In this document: positions 2,685-53,561 of the stretch, piece by piece
How the letters are laid out: each line of letters starts with the position of its first letter
Position numbering within the stretch: position 1 is the first letter of the stretch
Source: Candidatus Methylomirabilota bacterium
Lineage (GTDB): Bacteria; Methylomirabilota; Methylomirabilia; Rokubacteriales; CSP1-6
DNA: 64,000 nt
NCBI GenBank assembly: GCA_035635755.1
Contig: DASQAK010000052.1
Location: 6,236 to 70,235 of the forward strand
Direction: 5' to 3'
Translations under genes and position numbers: made by a program
Notes under the pieces: generated by a model
What the model was told of the DNA's origin: nothing
The model's database searches: none
Seen by the model: the letters and a program-made list of their open reading frames with translations, nothing else

Positions 2685-4075
2685 TACGCGTTCCGGTCGA
2701 AGAGCACGCGCACCACGGTGAGCACGATGATCTTCAGGTCGAGCCAGAGCGACCAGCGCTCGATGTACTCGAGGTCGTACTCGATGCGCTTCTCGAGGGA
2801 GGTGTTGCCGCGCAGCCCGTGCACCTGCGCCCAGCCCGTGACGCCCGACTTGACCTTGTGGCGCAGCATGTAGCCGGGTACGGTCTGGCGGAAGCGCTCC
2901 ACGAAGACCGGCCGCTCGGGTCGCGGCCCCACCACGCTCATCTCGCCCCGCAGGACATTGATGAACTGGGGCATCTCGTCGAGGCTGAAGCGGCGGAGGA
3001 AGGCGCCGATGGGCGTGCGCCGCGGGTCGTCGGGCGGGGCCCACACCGGTCCCGTCTCCGCCTCCGCGTCGAGTCGCATGGTGCGGAACTTGAGCATGCG
3101 GAAGCGCTGGCCGTCGAGCCCCATGCGCTCCTGGCCGAAGAGGATGGGCCCGCGCGAGGTCGCCTTGACCGCAGCGGCGAGCGCGAGAATGAACGGGGCG
3201 AGCGCGGCGAGGACGGTGACGGAGAAGGCGACGTCGAACACGCGCTTGGCGACCTGGTTCCAGCCGTGGAGCGGCGATTCCCGCAGGTAGACGAAGGGGA
3301 GGCCCTCGAACTCCTCCACTCCCCCGCGCAGCGAGGTGAAGCGGCCGAGGTCTGGCACCACGTGAATGGTCACGGGCTCGTCGCCGATGGCCTCGAGCAG
3401 CCCGCCGAGCCGGCCATAGTCCTCGTGGGAGAGTGCGAGAATCACGTGGTCGACCTGGCGGGCGTCGAGCACCGCCCGCAGGTCGGCATACCCGCCCAGC
3501 GAGGGAATACCTCCGTCCGATTCCTTGGTGTCGCCGACCAGGCCCAGCAGCCGCACGCCGATGTCCGGACGCCCGTGCAGTCGCCGGATCACGCCGGCGG
3601 CCAGCTCGCCCCCGCCCACCACTAGGGCATAGCGCTGGTTGTAGCCGTGACGGCGCGCGAATCGCAGCACCTCGCGAAAGACGTAGCGGGCGAAGGACAC
3701 GGAGGCGATCGACAGCACCCAGAAGTACACGATGACCACGCGCGAGTAGTCGTACTCGCGGAAGAAGAAGGTCATGGCGCTGACGAGGACGAGGGCGCCC
3801 ATGGTCGAGGCCTTGGCGATGTCCGTGACCTCGGAGAGTCGCGAGCCGATGCGCCGCGGCCGGTAGAGGTCGAAGGCCCGGAAGGAGATCCCCCAGACGA
3901 TGAGGATGGGCAGGAGCATCAAGAGATAGGGCTCGATGGGCGGGGTGCCGTGTCGCGACGGCGGGCCCGCCACGAAGAAGCGGATGCCGTAAGCGGCGAG
4001 CCAGCACGCGGCCACGAGCAGAAGATCGCCCACGAGCATGAGCTGCTCGAGTGCGCGCGAGTTCGCCTTCAGCAC
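2681..4075 (-). CDS. undecaprenyl-phosphate hexose-1-phosphate transferase (WbaP/WcaJ-type initiating sugar transferase)
   Basis: 464 aa. N-terminal TM segments plus central Rossmann-like region. C-terminal bacterial sugar transferase domain 'LLRRFSLDEMPQFINVLRGEMSVVGPRPE'. Confidence 0.85.
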   Translation of the reverse strand: MLKANSRALEQLMLVGDLLLVAACWLAAYGIRFFVAGPPSRHGTPPIEPYLLMLLPILIVWGISFRAFDLYRPRRIGSRLSEVTDIAKASTMGALVLVSAMTFFFREYDYSRVVIVYFWVLSIASVSFARYVFREVLRFARRHGYNQRYALVVGGGELAAGVIRRLHGRPDIGVRLLGLVGDTKESDGGIPSLGGYADLRAVLDARQVDHVILALSHEDYGRLGGLLEAIGDEPVTIHVVPDLGRFTSLRGGVEEFEGLPFVYLRESPLHGWNQVAKRVFDVAFSVTVLAALAPFILALAAAVKATSRGPILFGQERMGLDGQRFRMLKFRTMRLDAEAETGPVWAPPDDPRRTPIGAFLRRFSLDEMPQFINVLRGEMSVVGPRPERPVFVERFRQTVPGYMLRHKVKSGVTGWAQVHGLRGNTSLEKRIEYDLEYIERWSLWLDLKIIVLTVVRVLFDRNAY

Positions 4076-42397: not shown

Positions 42398-44340
42398 GAT
42401 CCGCTCCGCGCCGCGCTGATCTCCTCGGCCAATGCCAGCACCCGCTCCCCCAGGCGGCCGTCGACGGGATGAACGTAGCGCGCGGAGAAGGCGCGCCCCC
42501 GCTCGATCATGACCGCCCGCTCCGCGGGATTCCAGAGCACGACGCGGAGCGTGTCCGCGAGGGCCGCGGCCTTGCCCAGGTCCACCCGCCGGACCGCGCC
42601 CGCGCTGACATAGGGCGGCATGTACTCGCCCTCGAAGTCCTTGCCGGCCGTCTGCACGGCCACCACCGGGCAGCCCAGGGCCATGGCCTCGAGGCCGGCC
42701 ATGGACGTGACCATGACGGCGGCGTCCGCGGCCCCGAAGAGGCGATGGATGTCGTAGTCCTTGGTCAGGAGGGCCTCCGGCCATCCCCACTCGCCCACCT
42801 GCTCGCGCAGACGCTCGAGATCCTCGTTCGGATGGACCTTGACGATGAAGTCCACGTCGCCCAGCTGACGCGCAGCCGCCACCATGGTCCGGTAGAAGCC
42901 TTCTCTCTCCTGCGCCGAGAAGAGCAGCGAGACGTACTTGGACACGAAGACCACGAGGGGGCGGCCGGGGGCGAGGCTGAAGTCGTGGCGGACCTCCTCG
43001 CGCAGCCGCCCCGTGGGCACCAATCGCGCGGCGTTGGAGCGGGGGTCGCCGACCACCGACACCCGTCCCGCCTCGATGCCGAGCTCCCTGACCAGGCTCT
43101 CCCGGAGATGCTCGCCGATGACGACGAGGCGGTCGCCGATATCGAAGCGGCTGGTCAGATCGCGAGGAAGGACGAGAGTTCCCGAGAAGAGCAACGAGGG
43201 AATGCCATTCGCGCGGGCGACGAAGGCCATGGCCCGCTCGCCGAGGCGCCGGTCACTCGTGACGACGAGGGCGTCCGGACGTGTGGCCCTGACGGCACGG
43301 TACGCGGCTTCCTGGCACAGGAGGGCAGCCAGGAGGCTCGCCTCGGAGCCGGCCAGGAATGGCCGGAGGACAGGCCAGAGCGAGACGCCTCGCCACGACA
43401 CTCGCTCCGCGAGCTCCGGATCGCGCTCGGCACGTCGGAGCGCGCGGCGGAACAGCGGCCGGAACCGTCGGACGAGCCGCGCCGCCGTGGCCTGGGGAAG
43501 ATAGTCCATGAGATAAGCCGTAGGCACACCCGCTGCGCTGAGGTCGCTGACACGGGCCGAGAGCTCCGGGTCCTCGTTCGACTGCGCGACGAGACGGGGC
43601 GACGCGCCGGCCGAGCGCACGGCCTCGATCAGAGGGTCCACGAGCAGATGATGGCGGCTCCGGCACGTCACGAAGAGGATGCGCCGGCCCTCGGCGCGCT
43701 GAGAGACGGGGGCATGCCGCTCCTGACGGAGCAGCTGCTGGAGATTGATCCGATCCTCTCGCGGAAAGAGCGCCGCGTAGGCCCGCGCCGCGAGCTGCGG
43801 CAGGGGCGAGCGCGAGACGCCGCGCACCCCCAGGCCGCGGGCCCGCGCCACGAGGCGGGCCACCTGCTCCGTCATCGAGGCGCCGCTCAGCAGCCGCAGC
43901 TGATCGGGCTTCACCTCGTCGAGCACCCGGTTGATGATACCGAGCCGCTCCACCACCTCGAGCCGGACCCGAAGTCTCTTGCCCACCGTGAGCAGATCAG
44001 GCAGCCAGACGCCGCGGTACGAGAGATCGAGCTCGTCCGACGTCGCCTGCCACCAGCCGGTGACGAGGCGTTGCGTCAGCGATTCGAGCTCTCGCGAGTC
44101 GACGGCGTAGGCTTCCTCGTCGTAGTAGTGCACGGCGACCGTGGGGGGAATGGCCGAGGCGTCCACGAGCTGGCGGGCGCCCAGCACGGTCACCTCATGG
44201 TCCTCGATCAGGCGCTTGACCGCGCGGGTCACGGCCCGCCGGTACCAGTGGGCATAGGCGAGAAAGGATCGACGCACCATGGGCCGGCGAAACTCGCCGA
44301 TGCTCCGGGTCGCCTCGGTGACGAGGAGGAGCCGGATCAC
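42394..44340 (-). CDS. large two-domain GT-B-like transferase with HP motif (TagF/KpsC/sialyltransferase-like); candidate ulosonic-acid or glycerophosphate transferase
   Basis: C-terminal ~649 aa of ORF 42394..45036. 'FIVKVHPNED' HP motif typical of CDP-/CMP-dependent GT-B transferases. N-terminal 230 aa of the ORF rejected as artefact. Confidence 0.45.
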   Translation of the reverse strand: MIRLLLVTEATRSIGEFRRPMVRRSFLAYAHWYRRAVTRAVKRLIEDHEVTVLGARQLVDASAIPPTVAVHYYDEEAYAVDSRELESLTQRLVTGWWQATSDELDLSYRGVWLPDLLTVGKRLRVRLEVVERLGIINRVLDEVKPDQLRLLSGASMTEQVARLVARARGLGVRGVSRSPLPQLAARAYAALFPREDRINLQQLLRQERHAPVSQRAEGRRILFVTCRSRHHLLVDPLIEAVRSAGASPRLVAQSNEDPELSARVSDLSAAGVPTAYLMDYLPQATAARLVRRFRPLFRRALRRAERDPELAERVSWRGVSLWPVLRPFLAGSEASLLAALLCQEAAYRAVRATRPDALVVTSDRRLGERAMAFVARANGIPSLLFSGTLVLPRDLTSRFDIGDRLVVIGEHLRESLVRELGIEAGRVSVVGDPRSNAARLVPTGRLREEVRHDFSLAPGRPLVVFVSKYVSLLFSAQEREGFYRTMVAAARQLGDVDFIVKVHPNEDLERLREQVGEWGWPEALLTKDYDIHRLFGAADAAVMVTSMAGLEAMALGCPVVAVQTAGKDFEGEYMPPYVSAGAVRRVDLGKAAALADTLRVVLWNPAERAVMIERGRAFSARYVHPVDGRLGERVLALAEEISAARSGS

Positions 44341-44960
44341 GGACGGCCTCCGCGGGGACGCGCGGGAACGCCCATCACCGTTTCGCCCGCCGGCACATCC
44401 GAGATCACCACGGCGCCGGCGGCGACTTCGGCTTCCTTCCCCACCGTCAGGTTCGGCAGCACGGTTGCCCGGGCGCCGAGGAAGCCGCCCGCCTCGATGG
44501 TGACGCCGCCGCAGAGGACGACGCCGGGCGAGAGGTAGGCGTGCGCTCCGATGCGGCAGTCGTGCTCGACGATGACTCCGCTGTAGATGACGGCATTGTC
44601 CCCGACCTCGACCGACGCGCCGAGCACGCCGCCCGCGAACACCACGACGCCTTCGCCGAGGTGGCAGGTGCGTGACAGCACGGCGCGCGGGTGCACCAGG
44701 GTGGCGACCACGATACCCGAGGCCTTGAGAAGCTGGAAGAGCGCGGCGCGACGGTCGAGGGCGGCGTTGCCGATGCCGACCACGGCGGCATCCATGGCGC
44801 GGGCCGCCGCCAGCGCGGTCAGGTTCTCGTCCCGGCCCAGAACCGACGGGCCGGGCGAGCGATCGGTGAAGCCGGCGACGGTCCAGCCGCACTCGACCGC
44901 GAGATCGGCTACGGCCCGGCCGTGGCCTCCAGCGCCCAGGATCAAGAGTCGCTTGGCCAC
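44337..44960 (-). CDS. sugar N-acetyltransferase, NeuD/PglD/LegH family (hexapeptide repeat)
   Basis: 207 aa; 'LLILGAGGHGRAV' N-terminal Rossmann-like and C-terminal left-handed beta-helix repeats. Confidence 0.8.
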   Translation of the reverse strand: MAKRLLILGAGGHGRAVADLAVECGWTVAGFTDRSPGPSVLGRDENLTALAAARAMDAAVVGIGNAALDRRAALFQLLKASGIVVATLVHPRAVLSRTCHLGEGVVVFAGGVLGASVEVGDNAVIYSGVIVEHDCRIGAHAYLSPGVVLCGGVTIEAGGFLGARATVLPNLTVGKEAEVAAGAVVISDVPAGETVMGVPARPRGGRP

Positions 44961-44966
44961 GGCTCG

Positions 44967-45692
44967 CTAGCTCCGGCCCGGCGCGAGGGCCGCGCGACCT
45001 TCTCGCAAGAGCAGCTCGGCGAGGAGGAAATCCCACTCCGTGTCGATGTTCACGGAGGCCTCGAAATCCATCACGATGCCGCGGTTGTCCTCACCGAGGA
45101 TGTGCCCGTGGCGCATCAGGGTCTCGTAGCGCGTCACGTACACCGCGCCGGAGGGCTGATAGACGGGCGGCGCGTCCTGGCGACGCACATAGGTGTGCCC
45201 CTCGGGGAAGAGCGCCACCGTGCGGTCCCCGTCGAGCGTCTTCATGAAGTATGGATGATACGAGGCCTCCGAGAGCGTCTGGGCCGAGTCGGCGCCCGTC
45301 TCGGCGACCTTCCGGATCGTCGCGTCGATCTCGGCGCCCCGGCGGAACGGCGAGGTCGGCTGAAGGGTCACGATCACGTCGGGCTTCACGCCCGCCGACG
45401 ACTCGAGCCAGCGCACCGCGTGCTGGAGGACGCCGAGCATCCCCGCCTCGTCGGTGGCGAGCCCCGCCGGCCGCAGGAACGGGACGGGGAGACCCTGACG
45501 CTCGGCCTCGGCGGCGATCTCCTCGCTATCCGTGGAGACGATGAAGCGCGTGAGCAGCGCGGACTCGCGGGCGGAGGCGATGGCCTGCCCCAGGAGCGAG
45601 AGCGCGCCGAGCTTGCGCAGGTTCTTGCCCGGCAGGCCCTTGGAGCCGCCGCGCGCGGGAATGACCCCGAAGGCGTACGGCGTCGCCGTCAT
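44967..45692 (-). CDS. acylneuraminate cytidylyltransferase family (CMP-nonulosonic acid synthetase, NeuA-like)
   Basis: 241 aa; 'FGVIPARGGSKGLPGKNL' signature. Confidence 0.85.
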   Translation of the reverse strand: MTATPYAFGVIPARGGSKGLPGKNLRKLGALSLLGQAIASARESALLTRFIVSTDSEEIAAEAERQGLPVPFLRPAGLATDEAGMLGVLQHAVRWLESSAGVKPDVIVTLQPTSPFRRGAEIDATIRKVAETGADSAQTLSEASYHPYFMKTLDGDRTVALFPEGHTYVRRQDAPPVYQPSGAVYVTRYETLMRHGHILGEDNRGIVMDFEASVNIDTEWDFLLAELLLREGRAALAPGRS

Positions 45693-45695
45693 CCG

Positions 45696-46679
45696 CTAGA
45701 CCCGGACCCAGCGCCGCTCCGCCGAGGCCTTCACGGCGGCGTCGATCACGCGCATGGTCTTGAGCCCGTCCCAGCCGTCGCAGGCGGGGGAGGCCTCGCC
45801 GCGGATGCAGGCCAGGAAGTGGCGGGCCTCCTCGACGTACATGTCGTTGAGCTGGCAGGCGAACGGATAGATCTCCCACCGGTTCGCCCTGGGATCGAAG
45901 ACCCGGATCTCGTTCTCGAATCGCCGCCACTGGATCACGCCCTCTTCGCCCATCAGCTCGAAGTGGCTGTGCACGTTCCAGGCAAAGAGGTTCATATGGA
46001 TGTTGCCCACCGTGCCCGAGGCGAAGCGTACGGTCAGGTCGGCGATGTCGTCGGTGGTGATCTCGAGGCTCGAGACGCGGTCGACCACCGCGCTGACCTC
46101 GGTGATCTCGCCGCAGAGCCACCGCATAAAGTCGATGGCATGGCTCTCGTCGAGCACGCAGCCACCGCCCTGCTTGGCGTCGGCCATGTAGAACGTGCGG
46201 TAGTCCTTGCCGGGATAGCGCGTGGTCAGGTGGTAGGCGTACTCGGTCCGCGCCGCGCGCACGGCCCCGATGCGCCCTTCCTTGAGCAGCTTCTCGGCGA
46301 GCAGCATGGGCGGCCAGTAGCGCCAGTTGTAGGCGGTGAGTACCTTGAGGCCCTTGGCGTCGCAGAGCTTGAGGAGGTCTTCCACGCCGTCCACGGACTG
46401 GGCGAAGGGCTTTTCGACCATGAGGTGCGCGCCGCGCTCGGCGGCCTGGCGGCCCAGGGCGAGGTGCGAGTCGGGCGGAGTGCAGATCACGGCGCCGTCG
46501 GCGCCCGCGAGGGCGGCTTCCGCCGTGGGCGCGATGGCCGCCCAGGGAAAATCCTTGGCCGCGGCCTCGCGCTGCGCGGGGGCGGCATCGTAGGCGGCGA
46601 GGCTCTCGACGCCGACCGTCCGGAAATTTCCGAGATGCCGGCGGCCGATCGAGCCCAGTCCGAGGACGGCGAGCTTCAT
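45696..46679 (-). CDS. Gfo/Idh/MocA-family oxidoreductase
   Basis: From 'MKLAVLGLGSIGRRH'; 'EKPFA'. ATGA overlap with upstream stop. Confidence 0.8.
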   Translation of the reverse strand: MKLAVLGLGSIGRRHLGNFRTVGVESLAAYDAAPAQREAAAKDFPWAAIAPTAEAALAGADGAVICTPPDSHLALGRQAAERGAHLMVEKPFAQSVDGVEDLLKLCDAKGLKVLTAYNWRYWPPMLLAEKLLKEGRIGAVRAARTEYAYHLTTRYPGKDYRTFYMADAKQGGGCVLDESHAIDFMRWLCGEITEVSAVVDRVSSLEITTDDIADLTVRFASGTVGNIHMNLFAWNVHSHFELMGEEGVIQWRRFENEIRVFDPRANRWEIYPFACQLNDMYVEEARHFLACIRGEASPACDGWDGLKTMRVIDAAVKASAERRWVRV

Positions 46680-48220
46680 CTCTTGGTCTCCAGGACGAGC
46701 CGCGGGGCGGGGGGGGGCGGCGGGTCCGCGGCGTGCAGGCGGTTCCATTCCTTCTCGTAGCGCTCGATGCGGGCGATGTCCCGCCGGACCATCAGCTCAC
46801 GCAGCCCGTAGAGCTCGACGGCGTTGAACTTCTTGGAGATGACGGCGGTGACCCGCGTGGCATCGCCCAGGTCCAGCAGAAATGCTTCGAGGTCTCCGTC
46901 GTACTGGTCGAGGATGCGCTGCTTGTTCGCGTAGTACCACTCCGTTCCCGGATACGGGGTGGCGAAGAAGGGCTTGACGTTGAGGCCGAGGCGATTCCAG
47001 GCGCGGATGTTGTCCTTGAGGCTGTCGAAGTCCTCGTCGGGGAAGCCCATCATCTGGTTGGGGATGGGCCGGATACCCGCCTCGAGCGTCCACTTGAGCG
47101 AGCGCTCGTTGGTCTCGGGAGTGGCGCCCTTGCCGATGGTTTTCATCACGCGCGCGGAGAAGCTCTCGTAGCCGTAGACGAGATGCGAGCACCCCGCCTG
47201 CTTGATGGCTCTCAACACCTCGGGCGAGCAGAGGGTGGCGTGGCTGGTGCCGCCCCAGTGGACGCCACTGCACTTCTCGGGGTCGTGGGGGACGCCGTCA
47301 CGCACACACTGGGGCTGCAGGCCCTCCTCGATCCAGAGCTTTGCGATATCCGTCAGCCACTTCTTGCCCGAGAACTGGTGCATGGTCATGAGGTTCTCGT
47401 CGAGGAAGCCGATGAAGTCCACCCCGAAGCGCTCGCGAGCGTACTTGACGAGGTTGACGACGTAGCGCGGGCTGTGGAAGCGGATCTTGCGGTCGTAGGT
47501 GAAGGCGACGTCGTTCTCGCCCTCCGCGTTCTCCTGGTGCTGCATGTCGCCCGCGATGCCCAGGTGGAAGCAGAAGCGGCAGATGAGCGAGCAGCCGTAG
47601 CTGGCGTTGATGTCGAGGCGCCGCTGGGCGAGCATGCCCTCCTCGGAGTAGAGCGCCATGCTGTTCTTGAAGTAGACCTCGAGCGGGAAGAGCTCCCAGG
47701 CCGGATAGGGCAGGCTGTCGAGATCCATGAGGAGGGGCTGCTCCGGGTTCAGCCTGGTCTTGCCCGAGGCGTCGCGCCAGATCAGCCCGGGAACGGCCGC
47801 CCAGTCGCGATTCCCCCCGTCCACCCGGCGAAGCAGCTCGGGAAAGGACACGAAGGCCTCGCCCACCACGCCCACGTCTATCCGAGGCAGGAAGCGCATG
47901 ATGTCGTGAGGCATGCTCGTGAGGAAGCCGCCCCCCGCCACCACCAGCGCCTGCGGGCAAAGCTCCCTGGCCATCTCGACGATCTGCTTGATCGAGCGGT
48001 ACGCCGTGGTGATGCCGCCGAGCGCGACCACGTCCCAGTGGTCCGCCTGCAGCACCTGGGCGATGACGGCATCCGAGGGGCGCCAGGCATTGTGGTCGTA
48101 CACCTGCACCTTGTGTCCCTGGCCCACCACGATGGCGGCGAGGAGGGCCATGCCGTAGGGCACATGACGCGGATCGTCCTCCTCGCGCATCAGCGGATTG
48201 ACGAACAGCACTTTAGCCAT
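46676..48220 (-). CDS. B12-binding domain radical SAM protein (class B radical SAM; putative methyltransferase)
   Basis: From 'MAKVLFVNP' (AAGGA RBS). N-terminal cobalamin-binding domain. 'YGCSLICRFCFH' CxxxCxxC radical SAM cluster motif. Confidence 0.8.
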   Translation of the reverse strand: MAKVLFVNPLMREEDDPRHVPYGMALLAAIVVGQGHKVQVYDHNAWRPSDAVIAQVLQADHWDVVALGGITTAYRSIKQIVEMARELCPQALVVAGGGFLTSMPHDIMRFLPRIDVGVVGEAFVSFPELLRRVDGGNRDWAAVPGLIWRDASGKTRLNPEQPLLMDLDSLPYPAWELFPLEVYFKNSMALYSEEGMLAQRRLDINASYGCSLICRFCFHLGIAGDMQHQENAEGENDVAFTYDRKIRFHSPRYVVNLVKYARERFGVDFIGFLDENLMTMHQFSGKKWLTDIAKLWIEEGLQPQCVRDGVPHDPEKCSGVHWGGTSHATLCSPEVLRAIKQAGCSHLVYGYESFSARVMKTIGKGATPETNERSLKWTLEAGIRPIPNQMMGFPDEDFDSLKDNIRAWNRLGLNVKPFFATPYPGTEWYYANKQRILDQYDGDLEAFLLDLGDATRVTAVISKKFNAVELYGLRELMVRRDIARIERYEKEWNRLHAADPPPPPAPRLVLETKR

Positions 48221-49226
48221 GATGGTCCTTCGCGGCGGTCTCGAGGAATGCGTCCAGAGTGGACGTGATGACGCCATCGCCGAAGAGCAGGCCGCCCTCG
48301 GTGCAGTTGAAGGTCTGGCAATCGGCATCGCGGGCCATCTCGAGAAAGACCTCGCGAAACCAATGATAGGTCGGGTCGCTGAACCACACTTCGCGCGTCA
48401 CTGGATTCTCGGTGTGGATGAAGGCCTCGCGGTGCCGGGCCTTCAGGAGGTCGACGAGTTCCCGGAAGTATTGCGTCTTCTCGTACGGCGTGTCCGGAGC
48501 ATATCCCAAATCGATGCCCACGAGTCCGATGCGCCGCTTCCCCAGCACGGCATGCGTGAGCACCCATGCCGAGGTGCCGACGTTGCCGCCGCCATTGAGA
48601 CAGGGCAGGCCGTTCATCTCCCAGAGACGACGCGAATGGCTACCGGGCTTGTCATAGTCGTCGTACATCGGGTTCCACCAGTAGAGTTCCATGCGCGTCT
48701 GCTGGCAACGCCGCACCACCGCTGGCGCCGCGGAGGTCGCCGCGGCCACCTTGATCTTCGGCCCGTACGTATCGACGAGGTCGACCAGCGTGCTGTTGGC
48801 GCCAAGCTCATCCTCGCCATGGACGGAATCCATCTCCTGGCGGCGGAAGTAATCGTCAGCGGGGACCTCTGTCAGCCTCGGGTCGCCGAACCAGCGGACG
48901 ATACGGTCCGGATGCGGGTCCACGCTCACCACAACATGAGGCACGACGCCCGCCCGCAAGCAAGCTCCGAGCGCCCCGTCAGCGGCAACGATGGTGCCGG
49001 GGAAGTTTGAGTCGCGCAGCCGCTCGATGCTTTGGCGTCGCCGAAGGCTTGGCCCAGCGCCCACGACGACGGCGGTATCCCCCGTGCCGAGCTGCGCGTC
49101 ACGAAGCTCGAGAACAGAGCGTCCGATGTATGGCCGATTGTCCTCGGCGTTCTTGAGGCCTTCGCTCGCCACATGCTCGAACGTGGCCGCCTCAAGCTCG
49201 CGGGCGATCTTTCTTCCCAGCTCCAT
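48213..49226 (-). CDS. DUF115 / MptE-like (motility-accessory-factor Maf-like) protein; putative nonulosonic-acid transferase
   Basis: 337 aa; 'TAVVVGAGPSLRR...TIVAADGA...VVVSVDPHP' matches the DUF115 Rossmann-like core. Confidence 0.55.
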   Translation of the reverse strand: MELGRKIARELEAATFEHVASEGLKNAEDNRPYIGRSVLELRDAQLGTGDTAVVVGAGPSLRRRQSIERLRDSNFPGTIVAADGALGACLRAGVVPHVVVSVDPHPDRIVRWFGDPRLTEVPADDYFRRQEMDSVHGEDELGANSTLVDLVDTYGPKIKVAAATSAAPAVVRRCQQTRMELYWWNPMYDDYDKPGSHSRRLWEMNGLPCLNGGGNVGTSAWVLTHAVLGKRRIGLVGIDLGYAPDTPYEKTQYFRELVDLLKARHREAFIHTENPVTREVWFSDPTYHWFREVFLEMARDADCQTFNCTEGGLLFGDGVITSTLDAFLETAAKDHHG

Positions 49227-49563
49227 CCTGACGCCCTTTCGCTGTTCTATCTTCCGTATCCGCTCGGCTCGCTGTCCTGCTGGTCGCCTCGCTTGCGGCT
49301 GCGGCTCCTCCGGCGGGACGCGCTTTCGCTGGTCCGTCTTCCGTATCCGCTCGGCTCGCTGTCCTGCTGGTCGCCTCGCCTGCGGCTGCGGCTCCTCCGG
49401 CGGGCTGCGCCTCGCCCTGCCACATCAAACTCTTCTTGCTCACGAAGCAGATGCTGCCTCCGAGACGCGAGAGGGCCTTCTTCTCGAATTCATCGGTCGA
49501 GTTCGCGGCATCCCCCTTGTCCTCGATCTTCGCGTCAACCTTGTAGTTGCCCTTGAGGAACTC
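49192..49563 (-). CDS. small protein (123 aa) with N-terminal charged domain and 2x 29-aa Ala/Gly/Ser/Thr-rich tandem repeats
   Basis: Perfect RBS AAGGAG 7 nt before ATG. Very high GC3 in the N-terminal half. 'MPEFLKGNYKVDAKIEDKGDAANSTDEFEKK...' then repeats 'PAGGAAAAGEATSRTASRADTED'. 3' end overlaps DUF115 start by 35 nt. Missing from the obvious track reading because it lies inside a longer artefactual ORF. Confidence 0.5.
   Translation of the reverse strand, partial: EFLKGNYKVDAKIEDKGDAANSTDEFEKKALSRLGGSICFVSKKSLMWQGEAQPAGGAAAAGEATSRTASRADTEDGPAKARPAGGAAAASEATSRTASRADTEDRTAKGRQDGAGKKDRPRA
49247..49420. repeat. tandem direct repeat, 2 x 87 nt (~95% identical) inside the small ORF
   Basis: 'ccgtatccgctcggctcgctgtcctgctggtcgcctcgc' recurs with 87-nt period. 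In frame (29 aa). Confidence 0.85.
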
Positions 49564-49571
49564 CGGCATGC

Positions 49572-50240
49572 TCAGCTCCTTTTCGCGATCCGCCCGCCCG
49601 TGCTGTCGCCGTTGCCCGCGGGCGAGGCCAGGCGCCTCAGCGTGAGGAACTTCTCGGGCGGCAGACCCAGGCGAACCAGGCCCGCCACGTGCCGTTCGGG
49701 CCTTTCGAAGGTGGCGACGACGATGCCGTCGACATCGGCCATGGGCAGCTCGGAGACCGGCCGCACAGGCAGGCCCAGGAAATGGCCGCCTCCCTCCCCC
49801 GCGAAGATCCCCACCGGCTCCAGCCCGAATTCCTTGAGGGTGAGGTAGGCCAGCTCGGCCGCCTCCCCGGTTCCGCAGAGCGCGATGCGCTTCATCCCGT
49901 TCCGCCCCAGCTGCCCCATGGCCTCCCGGAGATTGTCGCGGGTCCGCCGGTAGAGCTGCAGTGAATGTCCCATGTACTCGTAGGTCAGGCGGGCCTTCTC
50001 CGTAGCGCCCTTGGCCGTGAGCATGTAGCGGAGGCGCTTGCGGGCGGAGGGCTTGCTGGAGAACTCCCGTATCTTGATGAAGCCCTTCCCGGCCAGCCGC
50101 TTCAGATACAGGTTGGTCAGCCCGAGGGCCACGCCCATTCGCGCGGCGAGGGCGCGCTGGGTCAGGGGCGCCCCCTCCTCGATGGCGGTCAGGATCTCGA
50201 GCTCGCGCTCGATGTGACGCTCGATGGCCATGGCGTTCAA
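49572..50240 (-). CDS. winged-helix transcriptional regulator with C-terminal Rossmann-like (Rex-C-like) domain
   Basis: 222 aa; 'LTQRALAARMGVALGLTNLYLKRL' wHTH; C-terminal 'KRIALCGTGEAAELA...GIVVATFERPE'. Confidence 0.55.
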   Translation of the reverse strand: MNAMAIERHIERELEILTAIEEGAPLTQRALAARMGVALGLTNLYLKRLAGKGFIKIREFSSKPSARKRLRYMLTAKGATEKARLTYEYMGHSLQLYRRTRDNLREAMGQLGRNGMKRIALCGTGEAAELAYLTLKEFGLEPVGIFAGEGGGHFLGLPVRPVSELPMADVDGIVVATFERPERHVAGLVRLGLPPEKFLTLRRLASPAGNGDSTGGRIAKRS

Positions 50241-50251
50241 TATATGAACAC
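50232..50251. promoter_or_regulatory. palindromic operator-like motif GGCGTTCAATATATGAACAC overlapping the regulator start codon
   Basis: Inverted repeat GTTCA-N5-TGAAC. Near-identical copy at 51776-51795 at the flippase start. Confidence 0.5.
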
Positions 50252-50275
50252 AGGCAGCGCGCCCGAGTCAAATTG

Positions 50276-51784
50276 CTAGGAGCTCGCTCTCAGGAAGGCC
50301 ACGAACCTCCGCGGGTCCACGAGCTCCCTGGCGTAGCGGAGATTGTCCGTCCCGGTGTGAGTCAGCCAGAGAAACCCCGTGTAGACGCCGAGGGCAAGCA
50401 CGAATCCCCCGGCCAGGGCTGCCGGCTCGGGCGCGCCGGCGGCGGCGAGGCCTTCCCGGGTCGCCTCGTTGACGGCCACGAGCACGGCGAAGCCCGTCAG
50501 GTACGCCACGGTCACCCGCTGGAAGCCGATGCCGGCCAGCTCGCGCGTCCATCGGATGAACACCCAGCAGGGGAAGATCACCATGAGCAGACGCACGGCC
50601 GCCGCCCCCGTGCCACCGAGGGTCGGAACCAGTACCACCATGGCGACAAGATAGACGGCCAGGCGCAGGAGAACGACGCGCACGAACCGTCCGTGCTGAT
50701 CCATGGCGTAGAGGATGAACTGATACGGATTGAAAGCCGTCTGGGCCAGGGCCGCCAGCACCAGGACCATGAGCGGCGCGACTGCGAGAAGGAAGCGCCG
50801 GCCATAGAGCAGGGTGAGGATGGGCTCACGCAGCGCCCAGAGGCAGAAGGCGGCCGGCACCGCGATGAAGAGTAGCCGGTCCATGGCCGCGGCGAAGACC
50901 CGCCGGCTCTCGGCCGCGGCCTCGAGCCCCGGTGTGGCGAAGAGCCGAGAGAGCCGCGACAGGAGAAGCTGGAAGGGATACTGGTTGAGCCGGCCGAGCA
51001 CTTCCCAGAGTGCCCGCGCGACCTGGTAGTACCCGGCGGCGGTCAAGCCCGCCCAGCGCGCGACGAGAACACGATCGAGAGAGTCCTGGAGCATGCCGAT
51101 GGGACTCGTGATGAAGAGCGGGCGCGCGTAGCTCCAGTAGGCCTGAAGCGTCGCGCGATCGGGACGACGCAGCGCGATGCCTCTGCGGAAGACGAGGATG
51201 TACCCGCCCACGAGGATCTCCGTGGCGCCCTCGACCACCAGGGCCGCCGCCACCCAGCGGATGTCGGGTGCCCAGATCAGCACGGTCATCGTCACCGCGA
51301 AGCGGAGCCCCTTGCCGGCCACCTCCGTGATCGCGTGGGCGCTCGCCCACTCCCGTCCCACGAAGGCGACGCTGAGGGTCGCCGCGAGATTCATCAGGAG
51401 CTGGGCGACGAGGACGAAGAGAACGACCTCGAGGGGCACGCTCGTCGGGATCACCAGGGATCCCCAGCGGGCCGCTGCGAGCACGAGGAGGAGGGCCGCG
51501 ACCTGGATCACCAGCTGGAGCGCGGCCATGGTCCCCACGCAGCGGCCGAGGTCGCCGCCTTCCGCCACCCGCTTCTGGTGCGCCTGATTCAAGCCGGGGA
51601 GCAGGAACGCGGTCAGCATCCCCACCAGGCCCATGCTGAAACCCAGGATGCCGAGGGCGTCGGGTCCGAGCCAGCGGGCGATGAGGATCGTGGTGACGAA
51701 GCCGAAGGCGCTGGCGAGACCGGTGCCGAAGAAGAGGACGACAGACTTCCTGCCGAGATTCCCCTCGTGGCTCACGGCGTTCAA
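50276..51784 (-). CDS. polysaccharide biosynthesis protein / oligosaccharide flippase (Wzx-like, MOP superfamily)
   Basis: 502 aa, ~12-14 TM helices. 'RWLGPDALGILGF' typical of PST-family flippases. Confidence 0.75.
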   Translation of the reverse strand: MNAVSHEGNLGRKSVVLFFGTGLASAFGFVTTILIARWLGPDALGILGFSMGLVGMLTAFLLPGLNQAHQKRVAEGGDLGRCVGTMAALQLVIQVAALLLVLAAARWGSLVIPTSVPLEVVLFVLVAQLLMNLAATLSVAFVGREWASAHAITEVAGKGLRFAVTMTVLIWAPDIRWVAAALVVEGATEILVGGYILVFRRGIALRRPDRATLQAYWSYARPLFITSPIGMLQDSLDRVLVARWAGLTAAGYYQVARALWEVLGRLNQYPFQLLLSRLSRLFATPGLEAAAESRRVFAAAMDRLLFIAVPAAFCLWALREPILTLLYGRRFLLAVAPLMVLVLAALAQTAFNPYQFILYAMDQHGRFVRVVLLRLAVYLVAMVVLVPTLGGTGAAAVRLLMVIFPCWVFIRWTRELAGIGFQRVTVAYLTGFAVLVAVNEATREGLAAAGAPEPAALAGGFVLALGVYTGFLWLTHTGTDNLRYARELVDPRRFVAFLRASS

Positions 51785-51795
51785 TAGGTGAACAC
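51776..51795. promoter_or_regulatory. palindromic operator-like motif GGCGTTCAATAGGTGAACAC overlapping the flippase start codon
   Basis: Second copy of the GTTCA-N5-TGAAC palindrome; first 12 nt of both genes identical (TTGAACGCC.TG). Confidence 0.5.
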
Positions 51796-51853
51796 ACCCG
51801 TCGCCGGCCGGTCAAGGTCATTCGGCGCCGGTACTGGGTCAAGTTGCGAGCCA

Positions 51854-52090: not shown

Positions 52091-52858
52091 ATGGGCCTGA
52101 GAAAGCTCGCGAAAAGGGTCCTCGGCGTCCAGCGTCAGCCGACGTACTACCTGCCGTGGCTGACGCGCCCTCATCTCCAGTGCGCCCTCGTGCTCAGCAA
52201 CGTCGAGTCGCGCTTCAAGGTCGGCTACAACCGCGGGAGCTTCCCGGTCTCCGTGGTCCAGTACGATGCCGACGGCGCAGTGGCGGGTCGGCACGAGGTG
52301 ACGCTGCCCGACGCGGTGGAGGCCGTCGAGCTGCCCCTGCCGTCCGCTCCGGGCGGATGCGGCTTCGCCACGGTGAGCGGCGAGCGCATCAACTCCGATC
52401 TCTACGTCACCCTCTCCGACGGCCTCGCCTATACCGCGACCCACGGTCGCGGCGAATTCATCGAGCGCTATGCGCTCCCGGGCCGCTTGCTCCTGGCCAT
52501 GATCGGCGGGCTCCTGGGACTGGCGGGCCGAGCCATTCCCGCCTTCGTTCGCCACCAGTACGCGTACGTCGGCCCCGACAGCCGCTCGCACCTGCTCGTG
52601 ATGAACCTGTCCAACGTGACGAACCGCGTCCGCGTCGTGGCCAGCTGGGAGGGGCGCGTCCTTGGCGCCCGGCTTCTGCGGCTCCCTCCCATGGGCTCGA
52701 CGCTCCTGGACATCGGGACGTTTGGCTCAGCCTCGGGCGGCACCGCCACGGAGGTGTGGAGGCTCCGGCTCGAGGGCGCGGCGTGGTTCAACCTGTACGT
52801 CGTCGGCGCGGGTGCCCGGAACCTCGAGGGGCCGCTGTCGCTGATGCATGTCAAATAG
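52091..52858 (+). CDS. hypothetical protein (255 aa), no recognisable family
   Basis: Diverse composition and high GC3; first gene of plus-strand operon. Stop overlaps the next gene's ATG by 11 nt. Confidence 0.5.
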   Translation: MGLRKLAKRVLGVQRQPTYYLPWLTRPHLQCALVLSNVESRFKVGYNRGSFPVSVVQYDADGAVAGRHEVTLPDAVEAVELPLPSAPGGCGFATVSGERINSDLYVTLSDGLAYTATHGRGEFIERYALPGRLLLAMIGGLLGLAGRAIPAFVRHQYAYVGPDSRSHLLVMNLSNVTNRVRVVASWEGRVLGARLLRLPPMGSTLLDIGTFGSASGGTATEVWRLRLEGAAWFNLYVVGAGARNLEGPLSLMHVK

Positions 52859-53561
52859 CGTCTCGGCCCTGCTCTCGGCCACGTTCTACGAGCCGGGCTA
52901 CGACCACCTCGTCGAGCTGGTGCACCAGCGCGATCCGGAGGCGCGCCGCCGGCTCGCCTCCCTCGATCTCTCCGCCTACGGCCCCGACGGCAAGCTGCTC
53001 CTCGAGCATGGCCTGGACACGCGGGAGGAGACGCTGGACCTGGGCGCCCTCCTCGCCCCCACCGCGCGCGAGCACGGGCGCGTCATGGCCGTGTTCGACG
53101 CGCGCTACGAGGAAGACGCGTTTCCCTACCGCCCCCACCACTACGCCTACGTCCATCGCGCGGGCTCCGCCACCCCGGCGCTCTACTATGCCGTCAGCGC
53201 GGCCCTCGGGGGCGTGCCCGACCGGATCGGGGACATGTCCCGCATCAACAACTTCGACACCTATGTCTTCCGTCGCGGGCCCCACGCCGCGCGGTACTCG
53301 GTCATGCTCGGCAACGTCGGCCGCTTCGCTCCCACAGAGGCGCAGGTCTTCGCCTACTACGGTGCCGAGCGCGTGGAGGAGACGGTCCCCCTCGGACCCC
53401 GAGCCCATGCCGAGGTCGCCCTCGCGCCCGAGCGCGGCGGGCAGCCCCTCACCCGCGTCGAGACCAAGTCGCTCTTCCGTCTGGCCGGATACGTGGCCGG
53501 CCGTCGGGACCCCTCGGGCGACCTCGTGCTCTTCGACCACCTCTTCACGTTTTTCAAGTGA
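52848..53561 (+). CDS. hypothetical protein (237 aa), no recognisable family
   Basis: Coding-like composition; His/Tyr-rich segment 'YRPHHYAYVHRAG'. Confidence 0.5.
   Translation: MSNSVSALLSATFYEPGYDHLVELVHQRDPEARRRLASLDLSAYGPDGKLLLEHGLDTREETLDLGALLAPTAREHGRVMAVFDARYEEDAFPYRPHHYAYVHRAGSATPALYYAVSAALGGVPDRIGDMSRINNFDTYVFRRGPHAARYSVMLGNVGRFAPTEAQVFAYYGAERVEETVPLGPRAHAEVALAPERGGQPLTRVETKSLFRLAGYVAGRRDPSGDLVLFDHLFTFFK

Follow-up and report, generated by a model that had tools for sequence, protein, structure and literature searches.

A conserved inverted repeat within putative promoters of a MarR-like regulator gene and a flippase gene in Candidatus Methylomirabilota, a probable autoregulatory operator

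The subject of this analysis is a pair of near-identical inverted repeats in a 64,000-nucleotide (nt) stretch of DNA from a Candidatus Methylomirabilota bacterium (Rokubacteriales; contig DASQAK010000052.1), the whole of which is referred to below as the window. One repeat lies immediately ahead of a gene for a winged helix-turn-helix (wHTH) regulator and the other immediately ahead of a gene for a Wzx-type polysaccharide flippase, and each is preceded by a hexamer resembling the -35 element of a bacterial promoter. Gene strands and frames were assigned by GC3 (third codon position GC content) frame analysis together with Pfam. The features at issue are the following:

49572-50231, minus strand, regulator gene, 219 amino acids (aa), start codon ATG at 50231, characterised with Pfam, NCBIfam, AlphaFold and Foldseek
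50233-50251, minus strand, candidate operator 1, 19-bp inverted repeat GTGTTCA-TATAT-TGAACGC, immediately upstream of the regulator gene
50266-50271, minus strand, -35-like hexamer TTGACT of the putative regulator-operon promoter, 5 nt past the flippase stop codon
50276-51775, minus strand, Wzx-type polysaccharide flippase gene, 499 aa, start codon GTG at 51775, Pfam Polysacc_synt and Polysacc_synt_3
51777-51795, minus strand, candidate operator 2, 19-bp inverted repeat GTGTTCA-CCTAT-TGAACGC, immediately upstream of the flippase gene
51810-51815, minus strand, -35-like hexamer TTGACC of the putative flippase promoter, in the same register as at operator 1

It is clear that the two palindromes are real and highly non-random. 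The 20-mer GGCGTTCAATATATGAACAC lies at 50232-50251 and the 20-mer GGCGTTCAATAGGTGAACAC at 51776-51795, as originally predicted, and each marks the 5' end of a minus-strand gene, that of the regulator and that of the flippase respectively. The core GTTCA-N5-TGAAC of operator 1 spans 50235-50249 around a central T at 50242, and that of operator 2 spans 51779-51793 around a central T at 51786. With up to three mismatches allowed, the 20-mer pattern occurs at 2 places in the window, where dinucleotide-preserving shuffles predict 0.01; its rarity and specific placement set the motif apart from the frequent, randomly scattered sequence that the original prediction had named as the outcome that would tell against it. 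On the minus strand both sites read TTGACy-N15-TGTTCA-N5-TGAAC-GCC-start, the TTGAC standing exactly 16 nt before TGTTCA in both copies (50271-50267 and 51815-51811). This pentamer had been overlooked, and the earlier description of a 5' motif, correct as to location, falls short in that the site is probably embedded in a promoter, with a conserved TTGAC as its putative -35 element. The stretch of 14-16 nt from TTGAC to the palindrome and the sequence past the start codons are unrelated between the two window copies, a selective conservation of separated blocks that argues for function and against recent duplication; a plain segmental duplication of the promoter was rejected for this reason. 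A third, degenerate copy of the palindrome (50545-50563, 2 mismatches) lies within the flippase gene and was discarded as a further operator, being a chance match in which the DNA is not conserved in relatives and the encoded peptide WVFxRWTR is.

The start codons lie just outside the palindromes. The regulator gene begins with ATG at 50231-50229 and the flippase gene with GTG at 51775-51773, each in frame and right after the motif, and in both copies three nucleotides (GCC) separate the right arm from the start codon, which the palindrome thus abuts. The original prediction had instead placed a TTG start (the 'CAA' of the forward strand) inside each motif, so that motif and start codon overlapped and both proteins began M-N-A. 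That common N-terminus is an artefact of translating the palindrome, and a TTG start within the motif is excluded on several counts: regulator homologues of 210-224 aa with the N-terminus M(A)(I)ERH... fit the 219-aa ATG product, the Polysacc_synt profile begins at flippase residue 8 as counted from the GTG, and in other loci the right-arm TTG either stands in another frame than the real start or lies far away from it. The combined promoter and palindrome element systematically misleads start-codon prediction, the original one included. Among public Joint Genome Institute gene calls for the flippase, one (locus L004, 3371) puts the start on the TTG of the -35 element and another (L005, 3434) on a GTG inside the palindrome.

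The association of the palindrome with this particular regulator gene was established in loci chosen by similarity of the regulator protein. Six loci fetched via homologous proteins show synteny, with the site ahead of the regulator in every one, and the gene order of the window is repeated in L001-L006, L041, L050 and L063. A metagenome scan seeded only with the regulator protein alignment yielded 80 loci, 77 of them with enough upstream sequence, and in 73 of the 77 an exact GTTCA-N5-TGAAC stands upstream of the regulator within 200 nt of its start. Across the 430,431 bases of these protein-selected loci there are 96 exact palindromes, where base composition predicts 0.09; 88 precede the regulator gene, 5 precede a flippase gene, and 3 lie about 1.75 kb upstream of the regulator, these last in three of the four loci that have no regulator-proximal copy. 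A flippase-proximal palindrome equivalent to operator 2 is present in L004, L005/L006, L063 and L064/L065. In one of the loci (L084) the open reading frame (ORF) between the distal palindrome and the regulator is sat/cysC-like. In some Methylomirabilota loci, namely L009 (motif end 2556, oriented) and L084/L087/L104 (about 1249), the palindrome precedes a gene resembling bifunctional sulfate adenylyltransferase/adenosine 5'-phosphosulfate (APS) kinase and the regulator follows 1.7 kb downstream, a context that hints at a link of the regulator to sulfated glycans or to the supply of 3'-phosphoadenosine 5'-phosphosulfate (PAPS).

The manner in which the site is conserved is that of a protein-binding site in DNA. 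All 10 arm positions are invariant in the 68 protein-selected sites, and the consensus from 68-73 non-redundant sites, R-T-GTTCA-A-n-T-n-T-TGAAC-R-Y, is one that operator 1 fits. The flanks are symmetric as well (R T ... R Y, with A5/T9), the flanking pair being T..A in 40 sites, T..G in 27 and C..A in 6, and the half-site centres are 10 bp apart in a 19-bp consensus, the geometry of a (pseudo)palindrome of about 16-20 bp with half-sites roughly one helical turn apart. Neither compensatory changes nor covariation was found across the 68-73 diverged sites, so hairpin base pairs kept by such changes are not seen. The site may stand as little as 3 nt or as much as several hundred nt from the start codon, whereas the distance from TTGAC to TGTTCA varies only between 14 and 16 nt. 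Invariant arms, a variable distance to the start codon and a near-fixed spacing to TTGAC together indicate protein-DNA recognition within a probable promoter and not a hairpin or translational element, and the duplicated translational control element that had been offered as an alternative is rejected on these grounds.

The element extends well beyond the close relatives of the window. Reference genomes (one per species, 596 Gb) were scanned with the composite pattern TTGAC-N16-TGTTCA-N5-TGAACRC, a genome-wide search of the kind first proposed with the original prediction, and gave 57 matches. In 30 of the 57 the match is followed, on its own strand, by a gene for a regulator homologue (30-96% identity); these 30, none of which was traced to a cultured host, belong to Methylomirabilota/Rokubacteria, Acidobacteriota, Nitrospirota, Desulfobacterales and one Nitrosomonadales metagenome-assembled genome (MAG), and three more Desulfobacterales-like matches are cut by contig ends. 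About 20 further matches without a downstream regulator homologue are probably due to chance, some 35 chance matches having been estimated by hand for this pattern. The Paludibaculum-type matches (L008, L011 and L062) precede an unrelated IclR-like protein, and the remaining matches, this context among them, are compatible with chance. In the Nitrosomonadales MAG (L029) the same promoter and palindrome precede a short, 122-aa, wHTH-only relative of the regulator, which lies just after the first palindrome (oriented); two adjacent palindromes stand here in tandem, GTTCAAATGCTGAAC then GTTCAACGATTGAAC. Beyond the close relatives, the genes that follow the regulator have no homology to the window cluster and, as judged from manual reading of translations rather than from Pfam, look like other glycan pathways: a Wzm/Wzt-type ATP-binding cassette exporter in Acidobacteria, Gmd/Fcl in Desulfobacterales, and WbpB/D-like, UDP-GlcNAc (uridine diphosphate N-acetylglucosamine) 2-epimerase and PseB-like genes in Nitrospirota. 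The neighbours change while the site and the regulator stay, which identifies the conserved unit as the site plus the regulator, as autoregulation predicts. A Nitrospiraceae MAG (L044) also carries, about 1666-2169 nt past the motif and shortly after the regulator, what appears by eye to be a NusG/RfaH-like paralogue, which suggests that antitermination may also act on that glycan cluster.

A candidate register of the palindrome relative to promoter elements can be derived. An exact TTGAC lies 14-16 nt ahead of TGTTCA in 52 of 73 non-redundant sites, and the sense-strand base at the dyad centre is T in 65 of the 73 and A in 3, an asymmetry for which a symmetric dimer site alone does not account. 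The preferred promoter spacing was taken from pooled Rokubacteria-type DNA from which the palindrome sites had been excluded: there, TTGACn and TAnnnT were paired at an 18-nt spacer 29 times, these cases representing six or more unrelated promoters, while no other spacing gave more than 5 pairs and controls with reversed sequence gave 0-2; in some of these promoters the start codon follows 7-8 nt further on, a leaderless architecture. Applied to the modal TTGAC-N16 sites, the 18-nt spacer gives a -10 element of the form TCAnnT, preceded by TGT (an extended -10-like TG), and puts the conserved central T at -7 and the conserved purine after TGAAC at the expected transcription start. For the regulator promoter the candidate -10 is then TCATAT at 50247-50242, with transcription predicted to start at about 50235-50234; for the flippase promoter it is TCACCT at 51791-51786, with a predicted start at about 51779-51778. 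This register leaves a 3-nt leader in the window, where the central T of the palindrome is 10 nt ahead of the start codon; the start codon lies 3-11 nt past the palindrome in 49 of 70 sites. No Shine-Dalgarno sequence fits between palindrome and start codon, only GCC intervening between the right arm and the ATG or GTG, and a 3-nt leader is consistent with its absence; the small ORF downstream of the regulator, by contrast, has GGAG. An alternative -10 element made of the N5 centre plus T (TATATT) was rejected, as it needs a 21-nt spacer and its position 2 is not A in most sites of the family.

Two subgroups of sites are instructive in this respect. In one the palindrome lies just downstream of an extended -10-like element, TGnTGCAAT, without TTGAC, and in the other, from Rokubacteria (L077, L078, L082, L086 and L098-L100), there are two tandem palindromes 15 bp apart, centre to centre. 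They show that the palindrome can occur apart from individual promoter elements, though always within the predicted polymerase footprint. Promoter-like sequences of other kinds were also observed in these loci. In L001 (about 3360-3392) and L003 (about 3340-3370) the flippase gene lies behind other same-strand genes and lacks the palindrome, having instead TAGAAT-N7-GTG, an internal promoter of leaderless type. A strongly conserved TTGACA-N18-TATCGT promoter stands 0.6-2.4 kb ahead of the regulator gene in many Rokubacteria loci (L084 at 614, L098 at 770, L122 at 1305, and about 17 more), preceding in L084 an ORF that by eye is YjbQ/UPF0047-like (MKVFSTSLTLSTEERTEV...); an Rfam search of three related loci gave no matches, including at this promoter region.

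The product of the regulator gene contains a MarR-type wHTH. Pfam HTH_24 matches it at 31 bits, above the cutoff, and Foldseek places MarR-family structures at the top for the N-terminus, namely MexR, MarR, ST1710 and the DNA-bound MepR and MftR. In the AlphaFold model (predicted local distance difference test, pLDDT, 83) the winged helix occupies residues 5-71, a long helix residues 73-111 and a small Rossmann-like alpha/beta domain residues 116-197. No Pfam family matches this C-terminal domain at E <= 10, including the PglD_N/NeuD-like family that its sequence had brought to mind, and the only similarity, structural or sequence, is a weak one to the N-terminal portion of PDB 2g6t; to judge from the searchable literature, the domain is undescribed. 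No close solved relative of the regulator was found. There are more than 4,700 homologues, the named ones from Candidatus Rokuibacteriota/Methylomirabilota, and the recognition-helix region GLTNLYLKRL is kept across the phyla that have the operator.

The flippase gene is the first of a minus-strand unit, with a gap of 44 nt between it and the regulator ATG, and no terminator-like site was found between the two genes. Behind the regulator lies a closely packed block of glycan and nucleotide-sugar genes (44337..49569, minus strand), made up of the following:

49192-49569, minus strand, small repeat ORF, 125 aa, with GGAG ahead, directly after the regulator
48213-49226, minus strand, MptE-like gene
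46676-48328, minus strand, B12-radical S-adenosylmethionine (SAM) gene
45696-46748, minus strand, GFO/IDH/MocA oxidoreductase gene
44967-45692, minus strand, cytidylyltransferase gene
44337-44960, minus strand, PglD-like acetyltransferase gene

Their overlaps and short gaps imply that these genes are presumably co-transcribed from operator/promoter 1. The small repeat ORF has a conserved N-terminal half followed by two tandem repeats of about 22 aa rich in Ala, Gly and Thr (AGGAAAAGEATSRTASRADTED), has no Pfam or NCBIfam match, and is represented in relatives by an ORF of 68-85 aa in the same position. On the other side, about 300 nt from operator 2, two divergently transcribed ORFs of 255 and 237 aa with high GC3 occupy 52091-53561 on the plus strand; neither has a Pfam or NCBIfam match at E <= 1.

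It is reasonably likely, from what these comparisons provide, that the MarR-like regulator (gene at 49572-50231) binds each palindrome as a dimer, and that each such operator lies within the core of a sigma-70-type promoter. The idea that the motif is an operator, probably autoregulatory for the adjacent wHTH regulator, was already part of the original prediction and now has strong comparative support in the 73 of 77 loci, the 96 palindromes against 0.09 expected and the spread over five phyla. Probably the operator overlaps the -10/+1 region of a TTGAC-N18-TCAnnT promoter that gives rise to near-leaderless mRNAs, and probably it is repressive. The proposed unit, on the minus strand, would consist of TTGACy as the -35 element, an 18-nt spacer ending in TGT, TCAnnT as the -10 element with its last T at the dyad centre, and the right arm TGAAC-R. 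Transcription would probably start at the conserved purine after TGAAC, leaving about 3 nt to the ATG or GTG, so that both mRNAs would be essentially leaderless and free of a Shine-Dalgarno sequence. Promoter/operator 2 would drive the flippase gene, while promoter/operator 1, just past the flippase stop codon, would drive the regulator and the nucleotide-sugar and glycan genes that follow. RNA polymerase would be kept out by a dimer sitting on -10/+1, and repression of the flippase gene and of the regulator's own operon is the most likely outcome; a ligand sensed by the C-terminal Rossmann-like domain would, in this scheme, relieve it.

Several observations weigh against this interpretation, some touching the regulator and others the promoter. 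The Pfam MarR profile reaches 23.8 bits, just below its cutoff of 24.6, and the best curated NCBIfam family, TIGR04176 (residues 9-103, E = 2e-18), scores 66.2 bits against a whole-protein cutoff of 88, so that the protein does not qualify as an equivalog. Unlike canonical MarR proteins, whose wHTH has dimerisation helices on both its N- and C-terminal sides, the modelled regulator has its wHTH at the extreme N-terminus, from residue 5, and lacks that architecture. A strict sigma-70 consensus scan found no promoter match at the sites, and the proposed TCAnnT has C at -11, where sigma-70 promoters almost always have A; the register may accordingly be wrong, or the promoter may need help, which would favour activation. 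The regulator copy in the window contains a textbook TATATT 7 nt before the ATG, a leaderless geometry, but with a spacer of 21 nt between it and TTGAC. Nor does the near-leaderless feature hold throughout, since about 130-500 nt separate the site from the regulator ORF downstream of it in Acidobacteria and Desulfobacterales. Finally, the inspected stretch around each regulator was about 10 kb or less, and more distant members of the regulon, or a different protein at the same site, may exist beyond it. As a separate observation on these distal sites, the separation is about 130-190 or about 500 nt (L012, L015, L017, L019 and L047 in Acidobacteriota; L025, L028, L030, L036, L040 and L061 in Desulfobacterales) and the members of each group share a conserved sequence in this interval, such as ...CTCAAAAGACAAACGCC...TTAATATAGAAAA in Desulfobacterales; the interval might represent a long leader, or else a small gene or RNA that has escaped annotation.

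The promoter register is thus best regarded as provisional, and activation may yet prove to be the mode of control. On that model, to which we attach a minor but real probability, the operator and the regulator are the same and the defective -10 element, with its C at -11, is opened only when a bound dimer, perhaps with its ligand, remodels the DNA. The candidate at the preferred 18-nt spacing does lack the near-universal A at position 2, the strict scan finds no promoter, and the -35 element departs unusually little from consensus, a trait of activator-independent or compensated promoters. Against activation, the site is centred on -10/+1, or lies downstream of the -10 element in the TGCAAT subgroup, and a protein bound there would normally obstruct polymerase; most MarR-family proteins are repressors; and the second palindrome of the tandem arrangements would extend coverage downstream, over the predicted start region. 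A bolder form of the model, which we likewise think rather improbable, is that the operator replaces the essential A at -11, that a nearly invariant 19-bp operator fused to the -10 element has been kept for a whole family of more than 4,700 one-component sensors (wHTH, long helix and novel Rossmann-like domain) gating surface-glycan operons in at least five phyla, mostly uncultured soil and sediment lineages, and that the regulator would be an obligatory ligand-dependent promoter-opening switch and not a simple repressor, its ligand conceivably a nucleotide-sugar or PAPS-type metabolite.

It is also conceivable, and in our judgement unlikely, that the protein recognising the palindrome is another regulator with its gene elsewhere, such as a global envelope or glycan regulator, and that the site stands beside the wHTH gene only because this gene heads glycan operons. 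Binding by the adjacent regulator is a prediction made within the limited neighbourhoods inspected, and composite-pattern matches do occur upstream of the IclR-like regulator of Paludibaculum and relatives. Such a regulator would, however, have to explain the pairing of the site with this gene in 73 of 77 unbiased loci and in five phyla with unrelated downstream genes, a pairing that holds for the short wHTH-only member as well, and a palindrome whose geometry fits a MarR-type dimer. Considerably less credible is a plus-strand promoter of the extracytoplasmic function (ECF) sigma type, TGAACA-N17-TCAA (-35 GAAC, -10 TCAA), directed away from the regulator gene: TTGAC-N16-TGTTCA read in reverse complement, TGAACA-N16-GTCAA, does resemble promoters of the GGAACTT-N16-TCAAA type in elements and spacing, but at operator 1, as in most related loci, the transcript would enter the flippase gene or some other upstream gene in antisense, the second invariant arm would not be accounted for, and the palindrome persists where TTGAC is absent and tolerates a 2-nt variation in its distance from it. 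Least credible of all is an RNA hairpin adjoining the start codon and controlling translation, since, although each copy if transcribed would form a 7-bp hairpin (-7.8 or -6.8 kcal/mol) abutting the start codon and read-through from the flippase promoter would include copy 1, the arms are invariant without compensatory change, the near-fixed spacing is to the upstream TTGAC and not to the start codon, and the predicted transcription start falls inside the right arm.

The autoregulatory operator proposed here is of interest for several reasons. A single operator sequence kept across five phyla is unusual for a local, pathway-specific regulator. The Rokubacteria/Methylomirabilota, Acidobacteriota and Nitrospirota are abundant soil and sediment phyla, mostly uncultured, and to our knowledge almost nothing is known of their transcription signals or of the control of their surface glycans. 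The analysis yields a precise, testable cis-element, comprising a 19-bp consensus, its promoter context and predicted 5' ends, together with its likely cognate regulator. The site can serve to locate where glycan operons begin and to put right wrongly called start codons in annotated metagenomes, and it offers a compact putative operator/repressor pair from high-GC uncultured bacteria.

Parallels with known systems help to place the element. LexA/SOS boxes are built from GAAC/GTTC tetramers, as in CGAAC-N4-GTTCG of Gram-positive bacteria and TGTTC-N4-GAACA of Verrucomicrobia, and share with the present site the words TGTTC and GAACA and a dyad symmetry; here, however, the spacing is TGTTC-N7-GAACA, and sites occur only upstream of the wHTH regulator, the flippase or a regulator-preceding ORF and not of DNA-repair genes. 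Leaderless mRNAs in high-GC bacteria, established for Actinobacteria and Deinococcus, are transcribed from promoters with a -10 element TAnnnT 6-8 nt before the start codon. The present sites similarly have no room for a Shine-Dalgarno sequence, the start codon mostly lying 3-11 nt past the palindrome; in the window the last T of the candidate -10 element is 10 nt from the start codon, within the 6-10 nt or so taken as the limit for a leaderless promoter, and the same pool of DNA contains TAnnnT followed 7-8 nt on by ATG or GTG; they differ in that the -10 here would be TCAnnT at an 18-nt spacer and the predicted leader about 3-8 nt rather than zero. With TIGR04176, the MarR family EPS (exopolysaccharide)-associated transcriptional regulators of NCBIfam, the regulator shares an association with polysaccharide loci, and differs in carrying a C-terminal domain of about 115 aa that is absent from the family model; the short wHTH-only relative L029 has the promoter and palindrome described here as well. 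A search for an operator of TIGR04176/MarR_EPS proteins, or for the motif in connection with exopolysaccharide or autoregulation, returned nothing relevant in the searchable literature.

A close parallel in site geometry is with the MexR boxes PI and PII of the Pseudomonas aeruginosa mexR-mexAB locus, also a MarR-family system. Those boxes read GTTGA-N5-TCAAC and the sites described here GTTCA-N5-TGAAC, with the same 5-5-5 geometry and arms that differ by one base. MexR boxes overlap promoters of the regulator's own locus. In both systems sites occur in more than one copy, including the tandem pair in some of the present loci, and the regulator described here has a MarR-type winged helix, with MexR among its Foldseek matches. 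The differences lie in the protein, whose wHTH stands at the extreme N-terminus and is followed by a long helix and an extra Rossmann-like domain in place of the canonical dimerisation helices, and in the genes concerned, which serve drug efflux in the case of MexR and glycan biosynthesis and export here, where binding is predicted. The element is most likely a MarR-type autoregulatory operator, belonging to an uncharacterised regulator family of unusual architecture and distinguished by an unusually deep cross-phylum conservation and a putative non-canonical -10 element.

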